This document shows, piece by piece, positions 2,017 through 54,196 of a DNA stretch of 64,000 nucleotides. A model generated the notes under the pieces. The model searched no databases. It was not told the DNA's origin and was given only the letters and a program-made list of their open reading frames with translations. Source of the stretch: Octopus vulgaris (Eukaryota); contig OX597818.1 in NCBI GenBank assembly GCA_951406725.2, positions 74,710,001 to 74,774,000 of the forward strand, given 5' to 3'. Both the position numbers and the translations under genes were made by a program. Every line of letters starts with the position of its first letter. Positions within the stretch are counted from its first letter, which is position 1.

Positions 2017-2057
2017 AATAATAATTCTCTAAACGAGATATAGACAGTAACTGCTCC

Positions 2058-2275
2058 ATAACATAAGGGACGTTAGCCATCTGACTGTGGCTAGGGACAG
2101 GGCAGGGTGGTGGGGGTGTTACTGATGCATTTAGCCCCAGGCGATCATCAACGTCACCAGACGCCGTGATGGCGTCAGCCCTCCTGGTGACGTTGATGAT
2201 CGCCTGGGGCTAAATGCATCAGTAACACCCCACCGACCTGCCCTGTCCCTAGCCACATTCAGATTACGTCCTATG

Positions 2276-2279
<4 letters not shown>
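2058..2279. repeat. Fold-back inverted repeat (~100-bp arms, 23-nt spacer) between (TA)n tracts
   Basis: 2113-2160 is the exact reverse complement of 2184-2231, and the arms extend with mismatches to 2058 and 2279. Confidence 0.95.
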
Positions 2280-2324
<45 letters not shown>

Positions 2325-2878
2325 GGTATGTATGTACATACATATATATTTATTTATTTATCTATTGACATATATATATATATACACACATATATATACA
2401 TATATGTATGCATGTATGTATGTATGAACGTATGTACTTATGCACATATGAATGTGTGTATGTATAGAGGAGAAAATTTTGGGGCACAGTGTACATTATG
2501 ACATAGCGAACCTTTACAGAAAACACCAACAAAGTACTTCGCAGAACGTCGTTCTTTCATATTGTCAGGCAACACTATTCAGAATCCACATACAAACCAT
2601 TCTCGCCCAGTGCTGTTTCCGTTCAACAATTTTCATTTTTGATTAAATCTATTCGAAATAACTTAGAGCGCTTCAAATAAGTCTTGCCTTGGAAAGATAA
2701 GAACGACGTTACTTCACAAGGCTTCCACTAAAATACTCCATCAAACGGAGTCAATCTTATCTCTATCACTAAATTTGCATTTAAGTAGATTGAAGTCTAC
2801 AAAATGATGTATTACATACATGCACACATACACCATTATATTTGTATGCGTAAGTGAGATACGTATGTATGTTTTTGA

Positions 2879-2913
<35 letters not shown>

Positions 2914-3089
2914 GTATGTATATACACAGTCAAATAGTCATACATTGGATATATGTTCATATAAATACTTATATGAACATAAATTCGTACACACATATAT
3001 ACATACGTATGTATGTGTATTCGAGTGTGTGGAGTGGGTCTATGTATGTGTGTATTTGTGTGTATATATGCATATGTATCTATGTATAT

Positions 3090-3345
<256 letters not shown>

Positions 3346-3639
3346 AGAGCCTGAATATAAGACTATGCTATAATTATCAATAAACGATCGTCTTACATTT
3401 ATCAGTTTCATAAATTTGAATTGACTATCCGTCACGAATATGTCTAGACAAATCCTGAGAAAAATAGTTATTAAATAACTTAAGAATAGTTCATATACGT
3501 TGTTTAAGGATAATTACTACGGTTATTTGAATTAAGAAACTGCTGCTGTAGTCAGAATTTTTCAATGATTATAAATTAATACTCAACAGGGCAACGACGC
3601 TATAGAAATATCTTCCATTATATATAAATTACAGTCATA

Positions 3640-3945
3640 TGTAAGCACTCAGCAACTCCACAGACACGTGTACCCTTACCGTAGTTCTCGGGGATATTCA
3701 GCGTGACACAGAGAGTGACAAGGCCGGCCCTTTGAAATACAGGTACAACAGAAACAGGAAGTAAGAGTGAGAGAAAGTTGTGGTGAAAGAGTACAGCAGG
3801 GATCACCACCATCCCCTGCCGGAGCCTCGTGGAGCTTTAGGTGTTTTCGCTCAATAAACACTCACAACGCCCGGTCTGGGAATCGAAACCGCGATCCTAC
3901 GACCGTGAGTCCGCTGCCCTAACCACTGGGCCATTGCGCCTCCAC
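3640..3945 (-). mobile_element. tRNA-derived SINE (family A)
   Basis: The head GGCGCAATGGCCCAGTGGTTAGGGC...GGTTTCGATTCCC has A and B boxes. The 3' body (TGTATTTCAAAGGG...CCCCGAGAACTAC...GTCTGTGGA) is shared with the SINE at 35833. Confidence 0.9.
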
Positions 3946-4389
3946 AGATCAACCTCTACAGTAAATGATGAGGTAGAATCCATAGAGCCAGCTGGTGCCA
4001 TCCTTGACACCGTTACGGCAACTCCAGGGCAGATAGAATTCTTCAGCTCTCCAAGGCAATTCTCTTAGGGGAAGTTTATTCCAGTGTAAAGCCTTGCACT
4101 TGCTGATTACCGCAGCCGTCTTAGCCTGCCGGGACAATGTGGTTAGACTTCCAAGTCTACAGAGTGGAATCGGATTGCGTTGACTCTCTTTGATACTACT
4201 AAATGCCGGTAGGAATAAAACGCACGCATCTTCAAGGACTGTATACATAGATACTTGAGGCCGTGGCATTTTGTCTCATGATATTCGGGTACCACAATGC
4301 TGCTGATGCTGGTGGTGGTGGTGACGTTGGGGGTATTGGTAATTGGATAGTGAAAAGTGTATTTTCTCTTTTAATTGAACTTATTTTAT

Positions 4390-4782
4390 ACCAGCTATCC
4401 CTTAATGCATGCGCATAAGTGAATCTCCGTGAAATATTCTTATTTACGTGTCAGATATATGCAAGTTAAATAAAAGTTGTATCATATGTACGGAATGTTT
4501 TTTTGCTTATAGTGAAAATGGAAAACTAAGACTGAATATTTATTTTAGGAGTGCTATTGAGTCTATAAAATTGTGCATAAGATATATAAAACGTATATAT
4601 AAAGTGCATTAAATAAGCATAGTATTCAAATTTATTTCACTTTTCAATGAGGAGCAGATGAGCGAGTATGTTTCCATACAGAAGCAACACAGGCTACGCT
4701 TTCAGGTTTTTTGGATAACGATCTTAGAAATAACCCAATAGGTGTACCATTAATTCCGTGAAATATTCACGGTTCCCGCTAG
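4390..4782 (+). mobile_element. Non-autonomous Helitron-like element (3' end supported, 5' end uncertain)
   Basis: Hairpin CCGTGAA-ATA-TTCACGG (4756-4772), followed 6 nt later by CTAG|T, the canonical Helitron 3' signature. Confidence 0.55.
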
Positions 4783-9756: not shown

Positions 9757-11181
9757 CACTGAACCGCAAAAGAAACGCGATTTTTTCAAGCGTCATTATT
9801 ATATGGTAAATTCTGAACATCTATGTCGGGGATGTAAGTGTAAATACTGCAAGTCATGCTCGTTTATATTTGAGACCCTAACTGCAGGTAACCTTTCAAC
9901 TTTCCCTGAAACGAGACACTAAAATGCAACTGCGTTGAATGCTGTAGGCGGCAGTCGTAAACAATTGTCATGAAAACCGAAATGCACGTGCATCTCGTGG
10001 AGTTTATGGCTATAAAGATGAACTTGAATCGCATTCCTGACATTCGTAATTTGGACGCATCAGGTATGACCCGATTGTTAGCAGCGTAGAGAGAAAAAGA
10101 TATCGGCCGGTAGCAAGCAGGGCAGCGTGCCCTAGTTGTTGCGAAAGCTTACAATGCCCATGTCAGCACCATCTATCGGCCATAACAGCAATGCAACAAT
10201 ACCAACAGCACTGCAGACCGTGCCTGCAGAGGGTGCCGCCGGATGACCGCGCCCTGGCAAGACCGCTTCATCCACTTGCACCACCTCCGTGATCGCTTCA
10301 GACCGGCCAGCGTGACAGCTCGCGAGACTAGACAGCGACCCATCAGTGACGACACAGTACGATGTCGACTTGCCGCCAACAACCTACGTTGCCGTCGTCC
10401 TGCTCGAGGGTCTGTCCGCACTACCCGCCACTATCGGACAGGACTACAGTGGGTTACACAGCACAGACATTGGCCGCATCAACAATGAAGGTCGATGGCA
10501 GAGTGAAGGCGTGGTGTAGGAGGATCCAACGCTACAGAGACGCATGTGTCATGAAGAGAGATGCGTGGGGTGGCCAAAGCATCATGATCTTGGGTGCTAT
10601 AGGCCTGAATCAGAAAATTGAGACCCATGTGTTCCAAAATGTTGATGCAGGCAGCGGGAATGGCATCACAGCGCAGCGCGATGTTGACCAGAAACTAAGA
10701 CCTCACATCGTGCCCTTCCTCGCGCGTTAGCTACGTGTTCCAACAGGACAATTCTCCCTCCCACACAGCCAGGGTAACTGTGGACTTCCTGCGTCAGCAC
10801 AACATCAGAACCATGCCGTTACCGGCTCTCAGCCCGGATTCGAACCTAATTGAACACATGTGGAATGAAATCCAGGACGGCTGAGCAGGTGGCCCCATGC
10901 CCAACAACACGTGTTGAACTGAAGGTAGTTTTCTCCAGGGTTTAGACCGGTGTATGGCCGTTTTGAACAGGCAATGAGGGCATACACGGTATTGAACATG
11001 TCACGCCCTACAATCTCAATGTGCTGGATCTACCTACTACCAGAAAACATGGCAACGACACATAGATTGTGGTCAAAGTGCATCCAAGAAATTGCCATTA
11101 TCAGATTTATCAAAATTTATCTCTGACATAATATAATTAAAACAGTCTCCACATGTCTCGCTTTTCTTTTGCGGTTCAGTT
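9757..11181 (+). mobile_element. Tc1-family (DD34E-type) transposon with both TIRs and a pseudogenised transposase
   Basis: TIRs CACTGAACCGCAAAAGAAACGCGA / TCGCTTTTCTTTTGCGGTTCAGT are flanked by TA. Frames from ~10067 to 10995 give QDRFI..HLRDRFRPA, TVRCRL, FQQDNSPSHTA, SPDSNLIEHMW and GHTRY*, with stops, frameshifts and a deletion over the first catalytic D. Confidence 0.95.
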
Positions 11182-19949: not shown

Positions 19950-21770
19950 TCATACAAACATGTCTATGGCTTGGATTAACTTTAAGAAGGCATAAGATAT
20001 GATGCCTCATTCTTGAATCGTTGAATGCCTGTTTGGTGTTGCTCACAACATCACAAATTTCCTGGTGCATAGCATGAAAAAGTAGAAAGCCAAATTGTAC
20101 TCAAGTTACGTATCCCTTGCAGAAGTTCACATTAAAACAGGGACCCGTTTTGTCCGTTACTTTTTGTATTTTGAACTAATACCTATAACAATGACAATTA
20201 GGAAAGTTAAGATGGGTTGCTGAGGTGGGAAGAAAGGCCCATCATTGAAGCATCTGTTAATGGATAATCTGAAATTGTTTGGGAAATCTGATAATCAGAT
20301 TCCTTAGCCAAAACAGTCCGGAAATGTGGTAGGGAGATCGGTATGGAATTTGGGATCACCAAATGCTCAGTACATAGTATGACAAGACGGGATAAAGTAG
20401 GTTGCAGGTGATTGCGGTTACCATCAAGAGAGACCATGGGTGAACGCGACGGTAATGGGTAAATATTTAGCGATTTTGGAGCTGGATGACATTCTACACA
20501 GAGAAATGAAAGTCAAGATCAACGAGGCGTATCAGAAAAGTTTGAAGATGGTGTTGAAATCCAACCTGAATGCCAAGTACTTGATTACCGCAATGAATGT
20601 CTGAGCAGTTGCTGTGGTCAGATATAGTGCGTTCAACCTCAAATAGACTAAGGCGGAAACATCAACACTGAATAGAGGGACGAGAACATTGATGACTCTG
20701 CATGGGGCGCTACACCCTAACGCAAACGTAAACATACTGTATATGAAAAGAAAGAATGGTGGCAGAGCACTAATTAGTATAGACCATTATGTAAGGAATG
20801 AAAGGAGAAGGCTTGCCGAGTATTTGATAAATAGTGATGAAGACCTGCTGCAATATGCCGCTAAAGATATGGATGTAAATGCAGATGAAATGATGTGCAA
20901 GGTGGAGTTTAACCAAAGAGCTGAGGAGAAGAGAAAAGAAGACCTTCTTGAAATGAGAATGCATGGATAGTTTGAAAGGAAAACACAAGACGTGAAGGAT
21001 AATGCAGCATCATGGTCATGGCTTGAGCGAGGTGATTTGAAGCGTACCACCGAAAGCCTGATCATTGCTGCACAAGATCAAGCTCTCGCTACCAATTCAG
21101 TGAAGTATAACATCTAAAAAAACTTCTGACACCCAGAAATGCAGACTCTGTGGAAAGAGTGTGGAAAATGTGTCCCACTTGGTAAGTGGATATGAGAACA
21201 TTGCACAAAAGAGTACAAACGCCGCCATGACAAAATATGTGTGTATCCTCATTGGTTCTTATGCCATAAATGCCAATATGAAGTAACAGAGAACTGGTAT
21301 GAGCATGTACCAAGTAAAGTTATGCAAGGAGGAGGAAAAGTAACGATACTCTGGGACTGATTTTCAGACGGATCGTGTAATCGAACACCGTCGGCCGGAT
21401 ATTGTCATATTGAATAAAAGAGACAAATACTGGTAGATCATTGATTTAGCTATATCAAATGACATGAATGTTGGGAGTAAAGGGGTTGAAAAAAATCACC
21501 AAGTGGAATTAGCAAGACTCTATTGAATGCGAGAGGGTAATGTAAAAGTGATACCAGTGGTGATCGGTGCGTTGGGTTCAATCCCATTGAAACTTCAATA
21601 CTTCTTAAGGCAACTGGAAATCCCATGCAAGATTGATGTCTTGCAAAAAGCAGCCTTATTGGGCACAGCGCAAATCTTAAGGAAAGTATTATCTGTCTGA
21701 GGTCCTTGTTGTGACTTGACAGATGACTAAAGACTCCAGTGCCTTTTTACCTACACTGTGTTACGAAAGA
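19950..21770 (+). mobile_element. 5'-truncated R4/Dong-clade non-LTR retrotransposon (RT + CCHC + RLE), pseudogenised
   Basis: Motifs: MAWINFKKA*DMMPHS, SPLLF, HLLMDNLKLF, GMEFGITKC, HGALHPNANVNILYMKRKNGGRALIS, ESLIIAAQDQAL, CRLCGK..E..SHLVSG, YKRRHD, HRRPDIV, IPVVIGALG, LQKAALLGTAQILRKVL*. Ends in (TAA)n. Confidence 0.92.
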
Positions 21771-27783: not shown

Positions 27784-30305
27784 ATGTATATGTGTGTGTG
27801 TGCGTTTGCGTATGTGTGTATGAGTAGATGTATTATGCATGCATATATGTATAGATATTACATGTACATCTATATATATACATCTACACATGAAATACAA
27901 AATACAAAGTTATATCTTGATATCGCTAGTGATAACAATACTCAAAATATATAACAGACTGGAATTGTAGGCCCGTCTCTTGCAATTTCGATCAATTGGA
28001 TCTTGTCCTCCCTCTTGTATAGAAGTGTACGGCTGCAGCGAAATTCATTTTTGGACTTTCTTCTATCGAAGGCATTTTAGCAAAAATGTTTCCGTAAAGA
28101 CGGTGAAAATATTGTCAATTTCCCCAAACAGGGACACATTCAAGTTTTAAACAATAACCAAAGCCCCTTCTCCAAAAGGGGGAGGGTTTCGGTTTACAAA
28201 TATTTAACAAATGCAACACAACAACGTTTCCTTGACGAGGAACCAACAAACGTTATTACAATAATCAAACAGTAATAATAATAACAACAAACCTTTTTAA
28301 TTTATCCTCATTTATATGAAACCACTTATTCAAGTTCAAGTCATTGATGCAATTTTATACGAATTGCTAATACACACACACACATAATAAGGGTGAAAAA
28401 TTAAATATTAATTTGATTAATATGAATTGAAAACCAGTGATATAGCATATAGCGGATCTTCCTCTAGCAAAAAGGATGACCAGCATTAATGGCTCATCCC
28501 TGTTATATAAATACTTTCACTTTAATTGTTGCACACTTGCAAAGAGAAAGTATGAGAAAGTGTGGTGGTAATGGAAGGAGTGAAGCACTTTAAATGAGAG
28601 AGGGAAATCGTAAAATATTGAGTTTTCTCAATATTTATTAATTGGGGGTGAAATTGAAAAAACTTTACATGCCATGACCCAATGGAATCTACTTCGAAAA
28701 TTCATAGGTAATTCCCAATTGAAGAAATTCTATATTGTACAATTGTATAAAAACCGAACGATTTGAGAGGCAGAGAAAATCTGCCTTTTATCATAAGAGA
28801 TAAACTGATGAAATTGTATTTTGCTATTGACTGCTTTCGAATTGATTGACCTCATACTGACCAGGACACCTTTCATCATCTTAGACCAATCTTTATTCCT
28901 CCTTCCCCTCTCGTTCATATTCTTTCTCTAACTCTAACCTCAGTCTATCCTCTCTTAAACTGTTTCCTTTGCTAATATTCACAGAAATTAATTCCAATTA
29001 ACCATGAACTTATGTTGCAAAATGCAAACGACAATAAAAGAAAATAGCGATTTCTTCTTTTCCTCCTTCTCAGAAGGATCCGACAATAATTTCCGGAAAT
29101 GCTTCTCCTAACAGCATACGAAATATAACATCTTTTTAATTTACTGTTAAAAATTGTTTTTTTTTTAAACATAGATTCTTAACAACATAGATTACTTAGA
29201 TTATTGTATTTCGACTGCTATTTACAATTCATATATATACATTGTATGAATCTATATCATATATCACTCTATTCGCCATCATACCTGTCTTTCTGTGATA
29301 TTTCGGTTTTAGTTTTAACCCCTTTCTTCAGCGATTCATCCCATCTCTTGTTTACCTCTTTCTTAATAACACTACTTTTCGTTTATGATTATTTATTATA
29401 TTTCGTTTATCATTTTCCTGATTGTTTAATTCTCACCTTTTCTTCATTTACCTTATTCCTATTTTTCATTTGTATAATTTGGTTTTCTTTTTATGTTATT
29501 TTTCAGTTTAATTTCTCTCATCTTTTTAATATATTTTTATATTTGTCATTCCATTAAATATTCGAGTGATAATTCCTTGTAGATGCAAAGTACTTAAAAT
29601 GGATTTATGCGACATACACTTTGAATGTATATGTGCGTATGTGTGTGTGTACGTACATAGGCTTATATATATATGTGTGTATATATATATATATACGTAT
29701 GTATATATTATTAGTATATATGTCTGTGTCAGCGCGCGTATGTGTGCACATATATATGTATACCTGTATGTATGAATACGTTTGAGCGTGTATGTATATT
29801 TGAGTGTGTATGTATGTTACCATACAAATATATCGATATAGCGCTACCATACTGATGTATTCCTGTAATTAATATGCACTTATGCCGCACCATTTTCCGA
29901 CTATGGTGCCTCTCACAATATGTGCAAGACTTCATAATGTTAAATGCCTAAATTCATTCTCAACAGCAGTTTTCCTACTTTGCTCTGAAAAGCAAAAATA
30001 TACCTAACTTTATCCATAATGGTTTATATATATGTACACATATATACATATGTATACATATACATATATATACATATGTGCATATATCAATAATAATAAT
30101 GGGTAAAATTAATTAATTAATTAATAATTAATAATTTTCCCAAGTACTTCAGTATTTTAAAACAACCATTATCGGTAAACTTAAACAAAATTTTTATAAT
30201 TATGAGTATAACTATAATTAGGCTCCAGCAAAAAATTTGCTTCACCACATACCGAAATTTAGAAATAGCAGTTAAAACTAGCTATTTCTCTACCATAATT
30301 GATTC

Positions 30306-30390
30306 ACTGTAGACGCGTTTCGGAGTTAGATAGATGTCAAAAATGTAAAAACCACGTTTCCACTTTATCATTCTCACTCTTCAGTAGAGT
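30306..30390 (-). ncRNA. Putative type I hammerhead ribozyme (copy 1)
   Basis: Minus strand: actcta-CTGAAGA-g...long helix II...c-GAAA-cgcg-TC-tacagt. Palindromic helix III ACGCGT; one helix I mismatch. Confidence 0.7.
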
Positions 30391-30894
30391 AATTCAAGAT
30401 TTTAAATTTGAAAGCACTGTAAAAATTAAACATATTTATCTGATCAAGCGACATTAAACCACATATATCCAACAACCAGTACTTCCGAATTCAAACTGAC
30501 GAATGAGATCTCGTATTCCCCCTCAGTTACCCACGTGTACTAATGAGTAAAAACTCTACAGAAAAATGTATTTTACTAACAGGGAGAAATTTATTTTATC
30601 ACTAATAATAAAGGGTAAAAATAGTTAATTAAATTAATTAATAATTAATAATTTTACCAAGTAGTTCAGTATGTTAAAAGAACAATTATCGGTAAATTTA
30701 AACAAAAGTTTTTATAATTATGAGTATAATTATAATTAGGCTCCAGCAAAATATTTGCTTCACCACATACCGAAATTTAGAAATAGCAGTTAAAACTAGC
30801 TATTTCTCTACCATAAGAACATCTCCCAGGCAACAATACTCAACAACCCACGCAGGCAAAGGGAAAAAATAATGAATGCACCCGGCTTTGATTA

Positions 30895-30979
30895 ACTGTA
30901 GACGCGTTTCGGAGTTAGATAGATGTGAAAAATGTAAAGATCACATTTTCACTCTATCATTCTCTATCTTCAGTACAGT
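30895..30979 (-). ncRNA. Putative type I hammerhead ribozyme (copy 2)
   Basis: Minus strand: ACTGTA-CTGAAGA-...GATAGAGTGAAAATGT..ACATTTTTCACATCTATC...-GAAA-CGCG-TC-TACAGT. Perfect 6-bp helix I and a GUC cleavage triplet; the helix II closing pair is mismatched. Confidence 0.75.
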
Positions 30980-31290
30980 AATTCACGATTTAAAATTTGA
31001 GATTACTGTAAAAATTAAACTTACTTATTTGATCAAGCGACATCAGACAACATACATCCAAAAACCAGTACTTCCGAATTCAAACTGACGAATGAGATCT
31101 CGTATTCCCCCTCAGTTACCCACGTGTGCTAATGAGTAAAAATTTTGAGAGATTTTCTTATGGTAGAGAAATAACTAGCTTTAACTGCTATTTCTAAATT
31201 TCGGTATGTGGTGAAGTAAATTTTTTACTGAAGCCTAATTATAATTATACTCATAATTATAAAAATTTTATATATATATATATATATATT

Positions 31291-31473
31291 AAATATAGGA
31301 TAAAATCCTTATAAGAATTTATCACGTAGCGTGAAAAACCTCATAAGGGAAAAAATTAATTATTCCCTTTAAATATGTTTATTTATATTAAGGGAATAAT
31401 TAAAATATTTTCCCTTATGAGGTTTTTCACGCTAACTACTTGATAAATTCTTATAAAGATTTTGTCCTATTTT
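31291..31473. repeat. Fold-back inverted repeat (~80-bp arms) between microsatellites
   Basis: TAGCGTGAAAAACCTCATAAGGGAAAA / TTTTCCCTTATGAGGTTTTTCACGCTA and flanking matches. Confidence 0.92.
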
Positions 31474-31576
31474 AAAATTTTACATATATATACACACACA
31501 CACACACACATATATATATAGGGAGATGTACTCGTATAGCAAGTAATTTGATCTGAGATCGTGTGCTGAAACGAAA

Positions 31577-31862
31577 ACAATTGCAGCGTGGAAGGTGTTT
31601 GTAAGCCATTTAAGAAACACACAAAAGCCGTTCGATTCACTTCAACATTTAAGTTTAATTTGTCAAAATATTTCCGTCGCTAAAATCCGCGACCTGTTCA
31701 CTGACAAAAATCTGTGCTGCATCACGGATTTTTATCAGTGAACAGGTCGCGGATTTTAGCGACGAAAATATTTTGACAAATTAAATTTAAATGTTGAAGT
31801 GAATCGAACGGCTTTTGTGTGTTTCTTAAATGGCTTACAAACACCTTCCACGCTGCAATTGT
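31577..31862. repeat. Near-perfect palindrome (140-bp arms, 6-nt loop) ending at (TA)n
   Basis: 31577-31716 is the reverse complement of 31723-31862, with about 4 mismatches counted by eye. Confidence 0.97.
31731..31780 (+). ncRNA. Putative variant hammerhead (G3-C8 core)
   Basis: ttt(a/g)tca-GTGAACA-g-gtcgc[ggatttta]gcgac-GAAA-atat-TT-tgacaaa. Confidence 0.5.
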
Positions 31863-31879
31863 ATATATATATATATATA

Positions 31880-32100
31880 TTTCTTTACTACCCACAAGGG
31901 GCTAAACACAGAGTGGACAAACAAGGACAGACAAACGGATTAAGTCGATCCCAGTGCGTAACTGGTACTTAATGTATCGACCCCGAAAGGATGAAAGGCA
32001 AAGTCGACCTCGACGGAATTTGAACTCAGAACGTAACGGCAGACGAAATACGGCTACGCATTTCGCCCGGCGTGCTAACGTTTCTGCCAGCTCACCGCCT
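31880..32100 (-). mobile_element. tRNA-derived SINE family C, well preserved
   Basis: GGCGGTGAGCTGGCAGAAACGTTAGC head, GAGTTCAAATTCC B box, GCCTTTCATCCTTTCGGGGTCGATA core, tail GGGTAGTAAAGAAATA. Confidence 0.9.
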
Positions 32101-32112
32101 AATATATATATG

Positions 32113-32170
<58 letters not shown>

Positions 32171-32177
32171 TATATAC

Positions 32178-32212
<35 letters not shown>

Positions 32213-33426
32213 AAACTGTGTAACATTGATAACTCGATGAAATTTTGAATTTTCACAAGAAAACAAGGACATTAACTTGTTTAATGCCATATGTGACAAG
32301 CTGTACCTATTCAAAGGTATTGTATGTGTGCTTGTGTGTATGTGAATGTTTGTGTGTCAGTGTGTGTGTGTATGTGTATGCGAGTGTGTGGGGGATGATT
32401 ATATGCGTGTGCGTAAGAAAGAAAAAGAGAGAGAAAGATATGAAAGAAAGAAAGAGAGAAAGAAAGAAAGAAAGAAAGAAAAAAAGAAAGAAAGAAAGAG
32501 AAAAAGAAAGAAAGTTTTAATGATCGAAGAAAGGAAAAGACAGAGGCAGTAAGTCAATGATTTCAGCAAAGCTATGGGCAACGATGCTACAATCCAAAAG
32601 TAGCCTCAATTATGTACTATTTATAAATAGATAGTGTTGCATAGCTACTTGTCGAGAAAGCAACCTAAGTTTTATCTCCTCCACATTTTTGATAGGGCAC
32701 TCAGAAGCAAAGTGATCGATGGATATTCCCATGTGTCATATTGTAACATCCTTCATAGGCTTTTCTTTGTATTCATTCTACCATCGTGTGTGATGGTGGT
32801 GATGCAAGTTTTATTCTTTAGAATTATTCTTCAATTTCATAATTTTGCAATGAATTTACGGATAATTACTTTTTTCTTTAATTTTGTCAGGAGAATGGGA
32901 GATTACTGTTTCAAAGTTGCTTTACGATCTTGAAAATTAAAGTATAGTTGCACACGGTATCCATTGTAAAATATTCCGTTCTATCGTCGATATCTAATTT
33001 TGATATGATTTTCTATTCTTAGATGTTTAGCAGACTGTTTTGCAGTCCATGCTCAAGTAGTTGGTAAGAGAATTATCCCGTGACATTAGAATGTCTTCTG
33101 GGCATGGATGGATATTTAGCCTGAATTTTCAAAGTCACGGAAGGCAGTCTGTTTAAGAAGCCATTATTTCTTTACGTGAATTTTATAATTTCAATATTAC
33201 ATATAGTAATGGTTGTAACAATGTTTTGGTAGTGGGCATTTCTTGAACAGAGATCGATATTCGCTGCCATTATTTCGATACCTGCCATATTTTCTGAAAC
33301 ATTATGAACGACACTGTATTATTCTAAAAACATTGCCCATCATCTGTTACAATAATTTTCATAAATTCAACTAGATATTGCCATTACTTTTTACGTCAAA
33401 ATGTCAAACTGCTGTTTCAATATTTT

Positions 33427-34181
<755 letters not shown>

Positions 34182-34719
34182 GTACTTACATTTCAGGTAA
34201 TATTGCGTCGATTAGAGTAAGATGAAAGATGAATACAATTATTGCTCATGTTGACTTGCCACCTAATTGAAGTGTTTCAAACGATCTGGTGTGTATGTCT
34301 TAGAATAAAAGTATAAACCAACAAACTACTGGTATCATATTAGATTGTGAACTGTAATGTACTCTCTGCAGGTCTATTCTCGAAACAGGTGATAGTAACT
34401 AACGGCATATCTTTTCCTTTTTTGAACCGGTTTTGGCTTATACCGACTATAACAAGATTTGCCTATCTAATATCAATAATTTACAGTTATATATATTTTC
34501 AGAGATAATAGCAGCATATATTACAGCCATTATGAGCATTCCCCAACTAACTTTGTATGTATCACCTCTTGTCTAAACTCTAGTAACCTTCAACTTTACC
34601 CAAATAAATGGCATGACCTGACCTGATAGAAGTTGTTCCTCTGTTCCGGCCTCATCATGACCTGGTGGGGGTACAGAAAACTTAAGTAATCCTTAGCAGA
34701 ACAGTCCACAACTCTTTTA

Positions 34720-35800
34720 TTTTACAGTGGGTGTGTAGATGGCATTAATATCATAATTAAGACCAACTCTAGTAACTGTAATGTAGAAACTGAGAGGAAC
34801 ATAATGGAGAGTATCCAGCAAGTATCTAACTCTATCCACCGAAGCATCAAGGTAACTATAGATTGCCCCACTACGCATGCCAGCATCTTGCTGGCATTTA
34901 GAGACTGTGAAAAATAGAGTGCAGCTCCTACACTCCTATTACATGAAACCCATAACTTCGAAATATGTTGTTTACGAGAACTCAGCTTTGTCACACAACA
35001 TGAAAATTAACATACTGATAGCAGACATAGTTAGAATATTGAACAACGTGTACCTACTAGGCAAACCCTATAAAACAAAGAAACGTATAGAACTTCATGC
35101 ACCGCATGCAGTTCTCTGGATATGATCAGAAAGATAGGGTTCATGTATACTGGGGTGCTAGAAACAAGTTACCATTATATGTAATGATACCAGTGGTACC
35201 TGCCCTAGATACAGATACAAAGTGCTTGTGACAAAGCAAACAGGGTGAACACGTGAAATGAAACCGACAAATATCAAGGACTGATGTTTGTATAGGCCAG
35301 AGCCCATGGAGAAATAGCCCCTAGATTTAGGAAAACTCTGAAGGAGGCCAAACTCAGCATTGAGATTGCCGAAAAGCCTGGGAATTCCATCAGATCACAA
35401 CTGTGTAGGACGTACTCCCTTGAGAATACTATATGTACCGATGATAACTGCATGGTAATTAGGATTAGCCCTTGCATTTACTGTAGAACTAGAAATGTAC
35501 TCTACAGCATAAGATCCATAGAAGGTACTTGTAAAGATATGAACATGACATAGGGGAGACATCTAGGAGCATTGCGGAAAGACTAAATGATATTTGAGAC
35601 AATATGACGACAAAAACGCAGTCCTCCATACTCTACCAATATGCCAAGGACCAACATGGATGCAACCTGACTCAACTTGACATCCGCATTCTATCGAAGG
35701 ACCCAAAGGACGCAACACTCAAACAAATACGGAAGTACGTCTTCACAAATGAAACATCCCCAGTACCAAATAGGAAATACACGCAGTGGATAATCACACA
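34720..35800 (+). mobile_element. Decayed Penelope-like element (RT thumb + GIY-YIG)
   Basis: YYMKPITSKYVVYENSAL..MKINILIADIVRIL, then CRTRNVLYSI..., GETSRSIAERLN and SILYQYAKDQH. Confidence 0.75.
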
Positions 35801-35832
35801 CTCATACCCACAGATTATATTTATAAACAGGT

Positions 35833-36167
35833 TGTGAGGGCGCGTGGCTTGGTGGTTAGGGCATTCGGCTCATGATCGTAAGGTTGTGAGTTCGATTCCC
35901 GGCGACGCGTTGTGTCCTTGAGCAAGACACTTTATTTCACGTTGCTCCAGTCCACTCAGCTGGCAAAAATGAGTTGTACTTGTATTTCAAAGGGTCAGCC
36001 TTGTCACTCTCTGTGTCACGCTGATTATCCCCGAGAACTACGTTAAGGGTACACATGTCTGTGGAATGCTCAGCCATTTGCACGTTAATTTCATGAGCAA
36101 GCTGTTTCGTTGATCGTATCAGCTGGGACCCTCGTCGTCGTAACCGGCGGAGTCTTTAAGTCTTTAA
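35833..36167 (+). mobile_element. tRNA-derived SINE (family A') with 10-bp TSD
   Basis: Head GCGCGTGGCTTGGTGGTTAGGGC...GAGTTCGATTCCC, then TGTGTCCTTGAGCAAGACACTT, tail (AGTCTTTA)2. TSD ATAAACAGGT at 35823-35832 and 36168-36177. Confidence 0.93.
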
Positions 36168-36929
36168 ATAAACAGGTAGAATATTTAGTGGGCTGTTATG
36201 TAGATAGGTGTATCTAAGTGTGTGTGTATATATATATATGTGTATGTGTATATGCACATGTTTGTAGGTATATGGATATGAAAGGAAACAGATAGACATA
36301 CATACGGATAGGTACATAGGTTATATGAACAGACAAGCACACATTCACACACAAATACACAATTGAAGACTGAAACACATGACCATATACACACACTTCA
36401 CGTTACACAAAGACACATATGGGGACATACGTTCACACATATGTAGATACCTATCCATACACACAGACACAGTACATAGTCACAAAAGCCAATACGCACA
36501 CAGACACACTCAGACATACACACACAAGGAGACAGAGGTGTACACACACACTCATGCAAACACACACACATTAAAACACACAAACATGAACACACAAACA
36601 CGTGAATATGCAGAATATATACATACAAACATACACAAATATATATGTACATACGCACACACACATACATGCATACATTCATACATGTGTATACACACAT
36701 ACACTGACCCACACACATGCACACAAGAAAACAAAAAGAACGTAGTTTGAATAACCAACAGAGTCAACAACTATTGAAAAGGTTCCACGATGCAGCGAAA
36801 ATTTTAGAAAAATAAATAAGTAAATGAGTGGAAATTTTACCGGTGAGTGTGGTAATGCACGAAAAGAGAATGACTCTCCCCAGACACAACCGTATGTGTG
36901 TGTATGTGTGTGTGTGTTGTGTGTGCGTG

Positions 36930-37128
36930 TGAATGTATTTCTCCCCGCTTCCACTGCCTGATATTCGATTCTGGTTTGTTTATGTCCCCATAAACTGGTT
37001 TTTCGGCCAAAAAACCGATAGAATATGTACTAAGCTTACAAAGTTCTGGGGACGATTTCTTCAACTAAAACTCTTTAAGGCGGTGCTCCAGCATGGCTGC
37101 AGTCAAATGATTGCACCAAGTAAAAGTA
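36930..37128 (+). mobile_element. SINE family B, 3' half
   Basis: AAGGCGGTGCTCCAGCATGGCTGCAGTCAAATGA...CAAGTAAAAG. Confidence 0.8.
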
Positions 37129-38918
37129 TTATATATACATACACGCGCGCACAAACAAACACGTATTATATTTACATGGAACATGAAATTACAGAATACT
37201 AAAAAGAAAGTACAATATTTTTTTAAACACGACAGCTGTTTCGGAAATCTCGGATTTCTCTACTAATCTTAATTCGCAGATAATGTGGAGAAGAGGCACT
37301 GCTATCTCTAGCGGTCGAGCGTTTGTCATTGATGCAACCAAGGAAGATCGAAATTATGCGACAGCGTGGTTTCGGCGCTGGAGATGGCGGAAATTCATCT
37401 ACCCACTATCGATATGAACAAGAGTGCAATTTGCACCAAAGGCTAATATGTGAGTTTCTCCTATGTTATCTACCGCTGCATAGTTTGTTCTAACAGAACA
37501 TCCACTGTTAATCGGGGACAAATATTACATTTCAGTATTAATATTGCCTCTATCGCTAATATGTATTTTTTAAAATCAAACTATACTATACATCTGCCAT
37601 CACAAGAATAAACTACAGATTTCATATAATATATGGACAGTAAGTGAACGGAAGAGTGAGGATTGGGAAACTAGAAGATTATTACATTCCGATTCTTTCA
37701 TACTAAGCTGATATCATTACTCTATACATATTATCCATAAAAAAAAGTATAGAGTTTAAATGTTTAAATGTGAATAGCGAATTATTACATCGTAACTACA
37801 GTGACTCGGGAATAATACTTACATCCGAGCAACTGTAGTCTGATTTGTATAATATGACAGCATGAGTCTGGATATAAAAGGAAACAATAAAGTACAAACT
37901 AGACGCTAAGTAGACTAGCGATCAATGTTTAGATAAGATCAAAGCAATAGAGAAACTTTTAAAATAACAAAAGATAAATCCAAAACGGAAATTCAGAAAC
38001 TACTAAAATAAAATGGAGATAATGTCCTCGTCATGGTCAATATCCTACAGACCGTCACAGAGAGGAAATGAAACACCATTAAAGCTAACAAAGGTTCAAA
38101 CACTCTGGACTAAAGGCAAAAACACATCACATTTTAACTACACAGCGTTAATGATTACCTACAATTTGTAACAAAATAAAATAATAAATCTAGTAACTAC
38201 CACCATCTAAAGACTAGGCAATCAGTATTAAAGAACAGTTGGTTATTTCTGCTTGATCAGTCGTCACAAAGATATAATATATCCATAAATACAACAGTGT
38301 TTGTAGTGATATCTACTAGACAGCTAGGGAAATTGAAGTATATGATGTAAGCACACACCAAACCCATTATATAAGAATGGTATTGGTATTGTATTCTAGG
38401 ACGCCATTGACCAGGGTGTTAATAATACAGAATAGCTAAGTTGAGATATAATTAAAAACTGAAATGAAAATTTGTAGGAAGTGGCAGCTATTTTAATCTC
38501 ATCCCACCAAACCATCATGTAAAAATCTAATAACAGAAATCAGGAAAAGAATATAAACAGTACCTGCAATAAGAGAGCAAATTATTAATAATACTATGTA
38601 TTTGGTATAGTAAATGGAACATACACTAAAAGAGAAATTTCCCATCAATACTGACAACGTCAAATTAGTTCTAAATGTTCAGAATTTATATAAAAGTTAT
38701 TCCCAGCAATACATTTCACACAATTGTGCAATCAAGTCTTAATATTGATTTCAAATCTTTGCTATAATGCTAGCAATTTCCGAGGACAGCGCAAGTAGAG
38801 TACACCGACACTACTGCTTTACTGGTGCTTATTTTATCGACTCCAAGTGGATGAACGGCAAAGTGGACCTCGGTAGAATCAACTCCTAATTTTAGAAACA
38901 TATTTATAACACGGTTTA

Positions 38919-38965
<47 letters not shown>

Positions 38966-41788
38966 CCGCAAGTATAAAGATGTTCTCGTAGCAGTCATGC
39001 ATTTCCGGTTTTGATCCACATGCACAATATCATGTGCCTTCTACGGAAACTTAATTAAAAATAGGTTAGTGTGGAAGCGAGGGAGGTGGAGTTCTCCACA
39101 CATATTTGTGACTCCTCCCGGTTTCCTTCGAGTTACGCCCGGTAGTGTTCAGAAAGTATCGATTTCTCTGATTTAATCTTGTTTCTGCTGTTGTCTTTGC
39201 TCATATTTCTCCCCGTTTCTTTTGTCTCTATTTTACTAATCCCTCTAAACTGCACATTCATTGTTAGCTTTCCTTCTCCCACATCCAACTACTACTCCGA
39301 AAAGCGCTGTGTTCTTTGTGTGTCAGGTCTTTGTGTTGCTGAGGACATATAAAAGTATGTTTCATTTTTGAGTAACTTATGTGTGTTATCTTTCATTCTT
39401 TCCTCGACGAAATTATCAAGCAAAGAGGCCGTAAGTTTGTGACTATTTTTTTCTTCACGAATAAGTTCCTTTATTGGCTCTGAATGACACAAGGGAGTGT
39501 ACACTTGACAGTTTATGCTGCTCAAAATGTCGCTTCATTCAACTCCCATTGTCTTAGTGATAGATGCATAGATGCATTCAAGAGTATAGCCCGATTTCTG
39601 ACTCATAATAAAATATCTGCAGAATAGGTAGTAACTCCTTCAATGCCTCAACTACCCTAAGGCTAAAAAGTAAAATTTCTCTTACTTTTTCTTCGTTCTG
39701 GGAGTTGAAAGAAGTTTATTAGTTGTTCTCTCATATTTGTTGCCTTCCTTGTTTAAATTCTATCGGTGTTTTTTCTGTTAATATTCTCACAAGGGTATCC
39801 GTTTACTGATTAATTTCTTTCAGTGTATTTCCCAGTGTTAACATGCATGTTCATAATTGGGTCTATTTGTTCAATTGTCATTATTTTATCTCATTTCTGC
39901 TCGTCTTTAAAAGCTGAATTTCTGTTTAAATGGTTTCCTTATTTATAATTTTTCGCGTAGTATACTTTGGTGTTGCGTTTGTGGCTAACAGCACCTAACC
40001 ACTACTCTAGAAGGTGTATTAATTTTATGAGATACAAAAACTGGATGAAAGTAAAACAATTATTCTCCTGCTTCAAGCAAAACGAAGTGAACAAATAAAC
40101 GTTTCGAAGTCCCTTGTTAAAAAAAATATGAAACCAAAATCTATTCCATGACATTAAATGGGAAAAAATAAATATCCATGAATTGAGTTGTATATTCCAC
40201 TTTTGCACACCACAAAAAACAGTCCCTACCATCCAAAGAATAATATGGATTTCTTTTATTGGCCTGAAAGTCACACGACATTGATGACATTATCAGGGGC
40301 CGAAATACAACATACAATAGGTGAGTTAACATTGATCAAACGGAGGTCAACAACATTAAAGTTACGACAAATTATATCAAAAGTAAACCAAAATATTTTA
40401 ACGTTGAAACTCAAAGTAGATAAAGCCATAAGCAATGGTAAGCACATCTGTCATAATCAAAGAAGCTGTGGGTTCGCGTCCCACTGGCAATCTTCGATAT
40501 TTTTCATCCAATGGAATTTTTAATCCAATACTCAACGCGCTTTTTTTCAGAGCTTTTACTTCAAGTTCGTTCGTTACAAATAATTTCCTTTATATTTGTC
40601 AACGTCTCTAAATTATCATCTTACAATTTACTGTGTTAAGAACAGGTCTTCTACAATGGATTGCGAGAAATCGAAGAGAATGTTTGGTACAATATTTTGC
40701 ATTTCTCTCATGTTTTAAGAAGATATGGGTTCCATTCCCAAATGTAAAATTCAAATTTTTAATGCGATATTCTACATGATATTATTTATAGTTTTATCTG
40801 CATCGAGTTCTATCCTTAACAAGAATCTGTTTCATATTTCCCGAAGTTTATAAATTCTTACAAATCAAAATATTATTTCTAAAAATGTGAGAAATCCTAC
40901 CCACATGTTTTCTTCTAGTTTTCTGGTACATGATTAGTCCTCATATTGGAATGTTCTATAAACTAGGTGGATATGTAGATAAATCTATTTTCTATCACCC
41001 ATTTCCAATATCCTTCCTTTCTGCACTTCGTAGTCCGCATCATCGACGGAGTTCTGCAGCAAGCTGTTTGTAGTTGTGCGGAAAAAGATCGAGATCGTGA
41101 CATTATGGACTTTAATGTTATTATTGCTGTTAATGCTAGAAGATAAGGCTCATGTAGTAGTAGTAGGAGGAGGAGGAGGAGGAGGAGGAGGTTGAGGATA
41201 AGGGTAAAAGGTGCAGGAAAAGGAGGAGGAGGAGGAAAAGGAGGAGGAGGAGGAAAAGGAGGTGATATATTGGCAGCAGTGAGAGTATTATAATGTATCT
41301 GTTGCTGGTATTGATGTTTTGCTAATAATCACCAGATTATATTTTCTTGCTTTTGTGGTGACGGAGGCGGGCATAGAGATGGTATTATTATAACATCTGT
41401 TGTTGATTTTGGTGCTGCTAATGGTATTCACATTCATACTAGACGTATTGTTGGCATCATTGTCATCAACTGTGCTGATAGAAGAAGTTGACGTTAGTCA
41501 TGGCTTCGACACTGATGTTTCAGCCATTGTTTATATTAGGAGTCAGACAAATTTAACATTTCATTGTGTTCGCGAGGCTTCTTTTCTTTTGCGGTAAAGG
41601 TTTTTCACTCCTACTTCCTCTGCATCTCTCTTGTTTCCTGGATCAACTGCAACTGTGGAACCATCCTTTCCATCACCGTTTCGAGTAATTCGCTATCTTC
41701 ATAAATGATTTATAATATGGTAGAAAATATATCTACCTCAAACAAGCATTTTTATTTTCGACCCTGCCGTTCATATTCATGCCCAGTG

Positions 41789-42459: not shown

Positions 42460-43085
42460 GTGAGTGCACATGAGTCGTTTTCTTTGTCTATCTGTGCTTC
42501 ATCTGTGGTATTCGCTGAACATAGAGTGGGAAAACCTGGAATTTTAGCGACTTATTTTTTGCACATACATCTATGAGTCTAATCAGTTGAATCTATCTAG
42601 TATTGAGGTCTCGTATTTGTTGTCGGTGAATGGTCAATCTATTTCTTACAATAAGCTTTGTTTGACCTATGTAATCTTCATTACATTGTTTACATTTGAT
42701 AGCATATATTGAATTCCTTGAAGAACATGTAAAGTCATTTTTTACGGTAAAAATTTGTCCTGATTTGAAATTCAACGCTGCATCTTTAATATGGTTGATG
42801 CAGATCCTGCAATCGGGGCGGCAGCACTTTTTGATGGTCGGTGTAGCAATTTTGGAAGGTAATTTAGCATTTGTGAGTAATTTTTTGAGGAACTTTTATT
42901 GGCATTTCCTTTTGATTATTTTGTGTATTTTGAGTACTTGATTCATTCTTAGGGCCTGTTTAAGTAGCAGGATGTTCTGGTGCATAATATTGTAAATCTC
43001 TGTGTTTCTTGGGTTGTATGTTGTAAAAAAGGGTATTGGACGTATCTGGAGCGATTTCCGATTTTCGCATTTCTTCGATATTTAT
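42460..43085 (-). mobile_element. Decayed Penelope-like (Neptune-type) GIY-YIG fragment
   Basis: PFFTTYNPRN, KKCCRPDCRIC, FTCSSRNSIYAIKCKQCNEDYIGQT...RLTIHRQQI; contains stops and frameshifts. Confidence 0.9.
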
Positions 43086-43573: not shown

Positions 43574-44037
43574 ATATTATTCTTAAACAAGAATATTATT
43601 GACAGTGATTTCGAAGTTTAGGCAAGTTAAGCCATCGTTGCACTACGATGCAATGAAGTTGACTTTGGTTTTATTTAGTCTCTGTGGAATTAAAAATATT
43701 CCTTAGGTACGTGGCTTTGAGAGACGTACTGATTATGTTTTAGGTTGGGTTGTTATGGAGAAGTGTTTTGGATAAATTGTCATTGATAAAATTTGGGGTT
43801 ATGTTATTATTCACATGCATGTTTTGTTCATATGCATGACAGACTTTATAAGCAGACTTTACATTAGGTTTTCTATTTTGATGCGTAGGTAGATGATGTG
43901 TTAGTAGGAAGATTTTTAACTCATCTGAGGCTATATAAGTCCAATGTTACCGTCAATGCATCGCAGTCCGACGACGGCTTCACTGGCAAAAACTTTGAAG
44001 TCACTATGAATAATATTCTCGTCTAAGAATAATAAAT
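43574..44037. repeat. Degenerate inverted repeat (~130-bp arms), related to the element at 2010-2280
   Basis: TTATTCTTAAACAAGAATATTATT...AAGCCATCGTTGCACTACGATGCA versus TGCATCGCAGTCCGACGACGGCTT...AATAATATTCTCGTCTAAGAATAA. Confidence 0.75.
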
Positions 44038-48855: not shown

Positions 48856-51155
48856 AACACTCTCAACTGAAGAAATCTGACACCAATTTTAACCCAAATA
48901 TTCTAGGGGGCGTGGGTTCATAATGCCTGCTCAAGTTTTTACGAAATTTGGTGTGCTGATGTAATGCAATGCAGAAACAGTATATCTGAATTTTCAGCTT
49001 TCACCTTTATGTAGAGTTTTTAATTTGTTACCACTTAGGCTCTACTTCAGGAAATATCTTTTTCCTGTCCTTTTTATTTCTTTGACGCTAAAAACTCTGA
49101 CTATATTAACTGTTTTTCAGAATAGTAGGCTTATCCATCTACATTATCTAAAATAATGTCTCATAAGAGTAGTGCATGTGTCACTCAAAGAAACAAAAAC
49201 ATCTGGACGACGAATCTCGTGCAATTTCAAGACTTACGCAGGAAAAGAAAACATGTTCCTCTAGAAGAGCATTTTTTGGAAAACAGCTGCAGGGTACCAA
49301 TGATACTTCATATCTGTAGTTGCTACCTGTTCCTTGGAGATACCATTAGAGGAAGGAAAGAAAGAACTAAGGAAATTTCGAAAGAAGTACCTTCTTTTAT
49401 GGCAAAAGAAATTAAAATTCCCATATTTATCACTTCAAAATGTGCAAGGAAGAGTAGAAAAGTGCTTAATACCTATGATAAATGTGTAAAAAGAGGAAAA
49501 TACGATTCATTGAAAGGAATTTTTGACATTACAAAAGAAAACGGTGAATGGCTATGCAGTGAGGATAGAAGGTTATATTATCTTGAAATTGAAAGCAAGG
49601 GACAGTATGGGTATGGAACTGGAAAGGCAGCCATCCATCCAAAAGAAGGAAAGTGTCCTTAATGCCTACTCCGACCAGAGCAACTCCAGTGTCATCGTCA
49701 ACGTCTAAGGCAGAGACTGAAAGTGAATATGAAGAGTCCGAAAACCAAATGAAGAATCCACACTAACAAGAAAACACTACATTTAGAAAACTGGTCATTG
49801 CAGTTTGATGGTAAACGTATTGATGACCAAGATTACCAAGTGCTAGTTTTAAAGAATGAACAAAGAGAATTTAAGTTAGAAGCACTCCAATTACCAAACG
49901 GAAAAGTCGATACTGTTGTGAAAGAAATAACAGCTGCTTTAGATGAATACAATTTATGGAACGGTGTAAAGATGATTGCCACTGATGCAACGAGTGTGAA
50001 CATTGGGAAAATAAATAGCATTATCATTCAGTTGAAGAGACTGTTTACCCAAAAAGGTTTGAAAGAACCGCAATTTATTTGTTGTCAGCATCATATCCTT
50101 GATAGAGTTCTTCGTGTTGTAATGGATAACAAACTTGGAGAAAAAGTAGTCATCTCACAGTATTGAATATACATTTATCCCAGAGCTTCTAAGTAATTAC
50201 GAGAAACTCCAGGGTAATTTCAACAATGGTGAAGAAAAGATTATTGAATCAGCAGGATGGCAATATGACATGAAATTTCTCTTTCATTTGACCAAAGATT
50301 TTCGTTTCTTGGAAGAAACCGGAAAAATTCCTACTGTAAAGTTTCAAAAATACCCTAATTAAGTAATGCACGATGGAATTCTCGAGCAATACTAGTTCTG
50401 TTGGCATTTATTTTTCTACCAAAGAAAGGAGTTTTGCTTCTCAATGTTTGTCGATTCATCTCTTACAGCTGGGCAGATTTTTGGTTTACTGACAAAATGT
50501 TGAATGCACATGATTATCAGAAGTTATGTGGTAGCCTGCAAGTTCATAAAAAAGCATTGCAGAGGAAAACCATAAAAACTGGAAATTCCCAGAACAAATC
50601 AGAGTGCAGAACGGCAATCAAGTGCCTTCAAGTTCTTTATGAAGAAAAGGAGAAAATTCAGCTTCGATTTATTTTATCTAGCATAACATATTAATTCTTT
50701 ATTATGTTTAAAAGTTTGCTAACATTCAGCAGCCTTTTTCTTAAAAGTTATTTAAAGTTGGAATTAAACATATAAAGTTAATTTTTTTGTTTTTAATTTT
50801 GTATGTTAACGAATGCTTGTAGTGAGCTCTATCTTAAAATAGACTAGTTTTTAACATTTGCATAGAGCAATTTCATTTCAGTAACCTTACGAATGTATAG
50901 ATACACTTTTATTTTACATCTCCCTTGCATTTACTGAAATTGAATTTAGTGCCACCTAGTGACTAGAGTTAAAACCAGATCCACAACTCCGAAACCACTT
51001 CAACTAGAAAGTTGAAATTTCAAATATACTATTTCTGCATTGCATTAAGTCAGCACACCAAGTTTGGCAAAACCTTGAACAGCCGTTATGAGTCCAGATA
51101 GAATTCCGCATGATTTGGGTCAAAAGTGGTGATCATTTATTAAGTAGGGAGTGAT
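48856..51155 (+). mobile_element. Decayed hAT-superfamily (hATm-like) DNA transposon with ~150-bp inverted ends
   Basis: QFDGK, MIATDATSVNIG, CCQHHILD (CxxH), NARWNSRAI and RTNQSAER motifs, with frameshifts. 48856-49002 and 51007-51155 are reverse complements (TTTGGTGTGCTGA..TAATGCAATGCAGAAA.AGTATAT). Confidence 0.75.
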
Positions 51156-51533: not shown

Positions 51534-51650
51534 TCTAGGTATGGTAGATGAGTTCAGTAAAAATTTAGATTCAGATGAATATGGTACTTAAGTTGAGGCA
51601 TCAGAATTTAGTACGGTATTATCCATACAATTTCAATATAAGGTGATTAA

Positions 51651-51948
51651 AATCAAAATAAGCAGCAAGGATATCCAGAGGTCATGCAGTCCGATCGTTT
51701 CATGCAACTCCATTTATTTGAACAATGCAATCATTTCATTACATCAATTTAAGTTGGGAGTGATGTCTTTTCTAATAAACCGAAATAAAAGTTCTTTCAA
51801 CTATGATGTTGTAGGTACAACATGTTCTTTGTCTACCACCATAACATTTTAAATTGGTGTAATGAAATGATTGCATTGTTTAATTAAAATGGAGTGGCAT
51901 GAAACGATCGTACTGTATTACCTCTGGATATCCTTGTTGCTTATTTTG

Positions 51949-51951
<3 letters not shown>
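51651..51951. repeat. Fold-back inverted repeat (~100-bp arms) ending at (TA)n; pLTR-like fragment
   Basis: AATCAAAATAAGCAGCAAGGATATCCAGAGGT... / ...ACCTCTGGATATCCTTGTTGCTTATTTTGATT. The right arm has GAAACGATCGTA, like a hammerhead 3' half. Confidence 0.92.
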
Positions 51952-51986
<35 letters not shown>

Positions 51987-53502: not shown

Positions 53503-54196
53503 TACAATCACGTGGTTTCTCTCTACTGAAATTTCTATAATTCTATGGGGTATTATTTTCATTAGGGATTCTTTCTGGTGGGATTTTTTATATTCGTTTA
53601 ATTTGTTCAGTCATTAAACTGCGACCATGCTGCAGCACCACTTCAACGGATTTAGTCGAATGAGGTTTTTATTTTATATTTTGTAATCCGACACTTTTTC
53701 TACTGGTCATATGAAGAACCGCTAAGTGACAGGCACAAACCATAATCGATTATGAAATGTACCGGGGGCAGTATATATATGCATATATGTGTGTGTGAAT
53801 GGGTGTGTGCGTGTGTGTTAGTGACTTTAGATTTGTCCCCAGTATATTTCATAATCGATTATGGTTTGTGCCTGTCACTTAGCGGTTCATCATATGACCA
53901 GTAGAAAAAGTGTCGGATTACAAAATATAAAATAAAAACCTCATTCGACTAAATCCGTTGAAGTGGTGCTGCAGCATGGTCGCAGTTTAATGACTGAACA
54001 ACTTAAACGAATATAAAAAATCCCACCAGAAAGAATCCCCAATGAAAATAATACGCCATAGAATTATAGAAATTTCAGTAGAGAGAAACCACGTGATTGT
54101 ACATATATATATATGCATATGTGTGTGTGTGCATGGGTGTGTGCATGTGCGTTAGTGACTTTTGATTTGCCCCCAGTACATTTCATAATCGATTAT

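Follow-up and report, generated by a model that had tools for sequence, protein, structure and literature searches.

Penelope-like elements (PLEs) leave a recognizable layout where they insert, consisting of a partial tandem, an adjacent inversion, a one-sided tail and a microsatellite target (PMC8557442). In the PLE of the anole, the tail equals the distance between two internal sites at which reverse transcription starts, and uncleaved RNA is the main template (PMC11167929). Animal retrozymes of the non-LTR type (LTR, long terminal repeat) are proposed to be derivatives of the pseudo-LTRs (pLTRs) of these elements and to be moved by PLEs (PMC7229834; bioRxiv 10.64898/2026.07.22.740005), and recently active Penelope families have been reported in one octopus genome (PMC13282606). 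Here we describe an insertion in Octopus vulgaris (assembly GCA_951406725.2, contig OX597818.1) that occupies positions 30085 to 31269 of a 64,000-nt stretch of that contig (74,710,001 to 74,774,000), hereafter called the window. It carries two type I hammerhead motifs on the minus strand and no coding sequence for a reverse transcriptase (RT) or an endonuclease (EN). Its origin from a PLE is near certain. The more specific reading, to which we give an even chance of being correct, is that the locus is a gene-less, solo-pLTR-type derivative of a Penelope-like pLTR that was copied in trans from RNA that was linear and uncleaved. Penelope repeats with hammerheads, and their non-autonomous tandem derivatives, are already described, and the kind of element is not new; its 56-nt helix II is unusual.

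Layout of the insertion

The insertion comprises 1.93 direct periods of a ~589-nt unit together with an inverted partial copy, and it lies within (TA)n. In minus-strand order, it consists of the inverted copy (31146-31269), three T, unit 2 (31142-30597), a spacer (30596-30554) and unit 1 (30553-30085); the inverted copy is on the plus strand and the other element features discussed below are on the minus strand. Inspection of the sequence reveals TA-type microsatellite on both sides, of the (TA/CA) type on the left (30025-30084) and (TA)n on the right (31270-31289). A preliminary description of the sequence had placed the left boundary at 30089, which we move to 30085; the inverted partial unit followed by (TA)n that it noted is present, as a 5'-truncated copy that blastn aligns to 30828-30705 at 93% identity and that is joined to unit 2 by the 3-nt T filler. 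Its claim of two direct units holds for the tandem of hammerhead motifs but not for the units as a whole, which blastn and global alignment reveal to be unequal: the upstream copy (unit 2) has 546 nt, 43 nt below the full period, and the downstream copy (unit 1) has 469 nt and lacks a 71-nt segment located at 30817-30887 in unit 2. Because unit 1 lacks this segment, the copies are spaced 589 nt apart in the hammerhead half and 518 nt apart in the other half. The start of the segment (~12 nt) is present in the inverted copy and family contigs also cover it; the loss therefore happened in unit 1. End comparison indicates that the direct copies extend 102-108 nt further 3' than the inverted copy, from which this 'tail' (30085-30186, 102 nt; unit 2 counterpart 30597-30704), with its AU-rich terminal hairpin (fold z -2.3 and -2.1), is absent. 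Neither blastn nor nhmmer detected further copies of the element in the window.

The unique 43-nt spacer (30554-30596), which occurs once in the window and matches neither flank, represents either the extreme 5' part of the unit or the junction left by a deletion. It was rejected as an evolved pairing partner of the next segment, as 91 of 1000 shuffles paired equally well. The spacer also bears on whether one truncated PLE end inserted and was later duplicated in place as DNA. Such a duplication would agree with parts of the units being 97-99% alike and with both carrying a near-private letter at 31086, seen in ~1% of family depth, which identifies them as close kin; a plain duplication would not, however, supply the spacer, and we consider this explanation very improbable.

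The partial tandem, the adjacent inverted 5'-truncated copy, the one-sided tail and the (TA)n target match the PLE layout, in agreement with the Penelope-type signature of tandem and inverted copies proposed at the outset. The same features, together with a hammerhead in the repeat, are found at the ends of EN-containing PLEs (Penelope/Poseidon, Neptune and Nematis; PMC8557442, PMC11167929). In contrast to those elements, in which ~3 kb lie between the repeats, only 43 nt and no RT or EN are found there at this locus, and its tail of 102-108 nt exceeds the 30-40 nt of the PLEs in PMC8557442. Elements without an open reading frame (ORF) that have pLTRs and head-to-tail insertions are also known among the non-autonomous Chlamys PLEs such as MRC1 (PMC8557442, PMC9940879); unlike the octopus element, these are green-algal, mostly lack canonical hammerheads and have a documented link to autonomous families. 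Identity with a Naiad consensus was rejected, as six of seven motifs had no match in the supplement of PMC8557442 and the seventh, a 9-mer, had two unrelated ones, although a match interrupted by a line break or a cut run could have been missed. The literature that we searched holds no description of this family, and Repbase and Dfam may hold one.

As first described, the element lacks RT and EN coding sequence. Its stop-free frames reach at most 70 aa, and the longest has no Pfam match; two PLE RT-EN proteins align to the element at E 1.6 or worse. These proteins, which are longer proteins among 758 candidates found with the endonuclease of another PLE in the window, match the window's two EN fragments at E 1e-36 or better. 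The 70-aa frame itself (30876-31085, plus strand) was rejected as a gene, having no Pfam match and an ATG that is not the family letter.

Hammerhead motifs and predicted RNA folds

The two motifs resemble the minimal type I hammerheads of metazoan PLEs (PMC4209133) in their CUGANGA/GAAA/NUH core, in the G10.1-C11.1 pair, in a short palindromic helix III that implies dimers, and in having no obvious loop-loop contact. On the minus strand, both cores read CUGAAGA, 56 nt, GAAA, CGCG and UC, with C17 in both copies and C3 at 30973 in copy 2 (30895-30979) and at 30384 in copy 1 (30306-30390). The predicted cleavage sites, 30901/30900 and 30312/30311, are 589 nt apart and agree with the coordinates first given. 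A motif scan that required a palindromic helix III and at least five of six helix I pairs returned only these two matches in 64 kb, as compared to a mean of 0.01 per window in 100 dinucleotide shuffles (with shuffle hits counted at a palindrome of at least 6 nt). The previously noted helix III palindrome, ACGCGU, is found in both copies, and its self-duplex has a predicted energy of -7.5 kcal/mol. The 73 Rfam matches at E<=10 include no hammerhead and consist of miRNA-type matches below threshold, to hairpins and microsatellites.

Helix II distinguishes these motifs from their relatives. The 56-nt insert, with 22 predicted pairs, contrasts with the 7-8 bp of the minimal hammerheads in PMC4209133, and an unpaired base that precedes G10.1 in that form here follows G10.1 or is absent. 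A descriptor with a 7-17-nt spacer (PMC8557442) would miss this hammerhead; the long helix II shows that short-spacer searches can overlook PLE ribozymes, a point relevant to lineages in which they are reported to be absent. The long insert was already recognized in the preliminary description, and it is 56 nt in both copies; its pairing is as described in copy 2, where 21 of 22 pairs form and the helix is more stable than its shuffles (z -5.0), whereas in copy 1 it is no more stable than shuffled sequence (z -0.2). Helix I was likewise given as 6 bp, which is accurate for the perfect helix of copy 2; copy 1 forms five of the six pairs, with a C.C mismatch. The suggestion that each copy has a single defect fails for copy 1, which has four mispairs in all, one in helix I and three among the 22 pairs of helix II. 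Copy 1 keeps G10.1-C11.1, which is lost in copy 2 by replacement of G10.1 with U.

It had been proposed that a minus-strand transcript of this locus releases a 589-nt RNA that circularizes. In a dimer, the site in unit 1 would use the core of copy 2 and the site in unit 2 the core of copy 1, so each cleavage site would inherit one copy's defect. The predicted folds are also unfavorable: the helix I strand of copy 2 is predicted to form an alternative duplex with a 9-nt complement upstream (probability 0.93), the core of copy 1 is hidden, and enforcing a double hammerhead costs 10.9, 19.8 and 23.3 kcal/mol over the minimum-energy fold in three contexts, in predictions that ignore proteins. The ribozyme of the anole PLE cut only when the PLE protein was present (PMC11167929). 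Both copies at this locus have decayed and would likely cleave poorly or not at all. The inherited defects, the predicted fold cost and the fact that the ends of the insertion are not the cleavage sites argue against release and circularization here.

The unit as a whole appears to be a structured RNA. The monomer from site to site folds with z -5.5, and its 5' end (31138-31105) is predicted to pair with the 71-nt segment (30817-30887) in a long-range stem of -36.8 kcal/mol that encloses the hammerhead domain, a duplex matched by 1 of 1000 pair shuffles and by none of 40 whole-unit shuffles. Upstream of the hammerhead core, at least 213 nt are non-coding and fold as RNA, whereas in an EN-coding PLE elsewhere in the window ~140 nt separate the stop from the hammerhead. 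The upstream region of the unit includes a 93-nt hairpin that is intact in unit 1 (30402-30494, z -4.3) but disrupted in unit 2 (30991-31083, z +0.2); in unit 1, the hairpin contains UACAGU, a repeat of the 3' strand of helix I.

Three further observations concern these folds. A second, plus-strand hammerhead at CTGACGA near 31085 was rejected, as the letter at 31086 is A in 99% of family depth and no closing core was detected. An 'anti-core' helix that would hide CUGA in unit 1 is weakened by the family letter at 31086 and may be a peculiarity of this locus. At 30939-31004, several letters found only in unit 2 convert G.U pairs of the family helix II to Watson-Crick pairs or extend a competing inverted repeat, and they resemble templated (quasi-palindrome) changes.

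The repeat family and the origin of the insertion

To place the locus among its relatives, 24 sequencing runs were considered; 19 runs in 9 studies contain part of the stretch, none of them half or more, and 4 were compared with 30554-31145 at 80% likeness. The contig comparison left out 30554-30743, which includes the tandem junction. Two DNA runs from two organisms contain 1585 and 1409 matching contigs. Summed depth is ~500,000 at 30754-30793, 30,000-39,000 over the 3' half of the ribozyme and 1,400-4,400 at 30934-31053 in one run (X1), whose listed long single contigs have depths of 40-90. Summed depth is not a copy number, and we take from it only that the family is highly repeated and has several subfamilies. 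The most widely shared part, with the highest summed depth, is a 3' block (30755-30807) that has a 9-bp hairpin at 30807-30779 (fold z -3.8) and in which loose contig ends occur at 30755, 30789, 30794 and 30795. Two further runs, guessed to be RNA, contain 29 and 138 contigs whose depth by bin tracks the DNA runs (Spearman 0.81 and 0.90), which says nothing on expression. Two pattern scans of metagenomes and one each of viral contigs and prokaryote genomes returned no matches. As D. virilis Penelope has an intron ahead of its hammerhead, a similar intron was considered here (donor-like ~31118, acceptor-like ~31007); it is not supported, as none of the 15 joints listed has backing in the two runs guessed to be RNA, one contig of which spans 30838-31141 without a skip.

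The letters of the family bear out the expectation of an intact consensus ribozyme. G10.1 is the majority letter in both DNA runs (91% and 94% of depth), position 17 is A in 83% and 79% of depth and otherwise C, both of which are permitted, and a deletion of the base after 10.1 accounts for 21% and 18% of depth. No other variant in the core, helix I or helix III is found among the 40 of 81 variant rows listed, supporting the view, from sequence alone, that the family consensus keeps intact hammerhead letters. After removal of rows that are missing, or all but missing, in the DNA runs, 37 variants were used for comparison of the units and 36 for a pairing test. Of these 36 places, 19 lie in predicted helices, and 17 of the 19 keep or create a minus-strand pair; seven places are circular, in that their helix was derived from unit 1, which carries the other letter, and with these excluded 10 of 12 keep the pair. 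Transitions at Watson-Crick pairs yield G.U on the minus strand in seven of eight cases (P 0.035). The pattern of variants points to selection on minus-strand RNA structure.

Joints between opposite strands in the contigs (4 of the 15 listed, from a total of 18) belong to other loci, which therefore share the inversion. Three of the eight ends of these joints lie in 31120-31145, near the locus's own end at 31142 (P ~0.012 if ends were uniform, 0.003 with this locus included). The 71-nt deletion and the inversion joint of this locus are not among the variant and joint rows listed.

We favor copying of a linear-RNA unit, given that ends gather at a single 5' boundary, that the unit folds into a closed module and that the insertion does not end at the cleavage sites. 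In the mechanism that we propose, the unit would be transcribed from the minus strand with a start near 31142-31185 (unit 2 numbering). A PLE endonuclease of the GIY-YIG type would cut (TA)n, and reverse transcription would begin from two internal sites ~100 nt apart (equivalent to 30085 and 30187), one start yielding a long direct cDNA with the tail and the other a short inverted cDNA without it. The tandem would reflect either a dimeric transcript or a switch to a second RNA, and the protein for copying in trans would come from an autonomous relative. The family hammerhead would be a dimer-dependent, minimal type I motif within a folded domain. That an ORF-less unit spreads on its own is no more than plausible. 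A short ORF-less unit with tail, inversion and ribozyme would provide a compact substrate for studying the role of the PLE hammerhead and the question of which RNA (cleaved, circular or uncleaved) serves as template.

A different account, possible but in our judgment less than probable, holds that there is no ORF-less family, and that each of the three pieces, the two units and the inverted copy, is a 5'-truncated end of an autonomous PLE with a long structured untranslated region, on which RT stalled twice at a hairpin and switched template. Autonomous PLEs routinely leave partial tandems and inversions (PMC8557442), genomic minimal hammerheads are mostly read as parts of truncated PLEs (PMC4209133), and a hairpin can be drawn across the spacer and the start of the unit, at a z of only -1.6. 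Two observations weigh in the same direction and against the linear-RNA unit. Summed depth is steeply 3'-biased, as expected for truncated copies of a longer parent, and 14 and 15 contigs extend past the 5' end of the stretch into what could be ORF sequence. The case for the linear-RNA unit has further limits. The fixed ORF-less period is seen at this one locus only, 30554-30743 having been outside the contig comparison. Only two PLE proteins were compared with the unit, and these may belong to another clade. The 5'-end clustering rests on four joints chosen by support, with a test window set after the data were seen, and could reflect an RT stall at a hairpin rather than a transcript start. 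The pairing test is without clean two-sided covariation; a variant at 30920 breaks one pair, and one at 31109 pairs only in a register shifted by two. The truncated-end account must nonetheless explain 589 nt without an ORF remnant, direct copies that both stop within 43 nt of each other at a place where other loci stop too, and a 5'-most 34 nt that pair with sequence 3' of the ribozyme so that the unit folds as a closed module.

An origin from a retrozyme circle would also generate the observed period. Here, dimeric hammerheads would release a 589-nt monomer that is circularized and copied for 1.93 rounds by PLE RT. The two sites are one period apart, the monomer has strong predicted structure and the ribozyme is kept in the family letters; moreover, more-than-unit copying of a circle has been proposed for PLEs (PMC4209133), and circles have been demonstrated for the retrozymes of coral, mussel and axolotl (PMC7229834). 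However, ends cluster near 31120-31145, whereas a circle would favor no particular 5' end, and the ends of the insertion do not coincide with the cleavage sites. One circle copied twice would give identical units that decay evenly, whereas the units differ at 22 positions in 139 nt (30925-31063) but at 5 across the 228 nt of the flanking blocks (P 0.025 in a scan test). Such unevenness is better explained by two related templates or by later conversion. Minimal PLE hammerheads are weak cleavers in vitro (PMC4209133), cleavage is unnecessary for insertion of the anole PLE (PMC11167929), and in the preprint that derives retrozymes from pLTRs one of nine dimers cleaved, the other eight predicted Xenopus dimers remaining uncut (bioRxiv 10.64898/2026.07.22.740005). 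With the fold cost of the double hammerhead at this locus added, we regard a circular origin as unlikely.

We give a similarly low probability to a broader version, in which the element would be an ORF-less ~589-nt Penelope parasite with a folding-gated hammerhead, the intact members of which release a circle that Penelope RT copies for more than one round. The upstream hairpin would hide the helix I decoy, and the long-range stem would close the ribozyme domain. If true, a tandem, a tail and an inversion in one insertion would tie the spread of retrozymes directly to the Penelope reaction. The element does share with animal non-LTR retrozymes (PMC7229834; bioRxiv 10.64898/2026.07.22.740005) non-coding, low-GC tandem units, a type I hammerhead per unit and a highly self-paired monomer. 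It is not classed as a retrozyme in the sense of PMC7229834 because size and ribozyme type differ: its unit has 589 nt as compared to ~170-400 nt, and its predicted ribozyme is minimal with a long helix II rather than canonical type I. The unit length is within the 51-972 nt of the preprint, whose looser definition the element fits at the level of the motif, both copies being damaged.

Neighboring elements in the window

The window contains two other PLE fragments. One, at 62221-63348 on the plus strand, is a 5'-truncated PLE with a 238-aa frame that comprises a CxxxxCxxC linker and a GIY-YIG domain (Pfam E 0.0097, below the cut-off) and that is 73% identical to an RT-bearing protein (P0001). 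The stop of this frame precedes by ~140 nt a minimal hammerhead at 63175, which has an ACCGGU helix III and a U3-A8 core, a variant that has been reported (PMC4209133); an inverted 5' copy and a tail of ~50 nt are also present. The 8-mer CACGTGGG occurs both in the tail of this unrelated PLE (62264-62271) and in the 5' arm of the unit described above (31119-31126), which may be chance. The other fragment, at 42521-43036 on the minus strand, is a broken PLE endonuclease that is 45% identical to the one at 62 kb, and an inverted pair lies nearby (43575-44034).

Two unrelated fold-back elements, each bounded by (TA)n, adjoin the insertion at 31271-31492 and 31577-31862, and the microsatellite beside the insertion seems to have served as a landing site more than once. 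The arms of the second element are 143 nt long and 97% identical, and it has a one-sided extension of ~57 nt, resembling a PLE end with a tail. More long fold-back elements ending at (TA)n are located at 1969-2364, 51648-51954 and 53503-54101, the last of which is followed by a partial repeat of its own center. A repeat at 31880-32105 with seven further matches in the window resembles a short interspersed nuclear element (SINE), and we take it to be similar to an octopod SINE. The frames at 1252-1566, 10186-10730, 20647-20970, 49129-50694 and 60304-61618 are presumably fragments of Tc1/mariner, long interspersed nuclear element and other transposon proteins.

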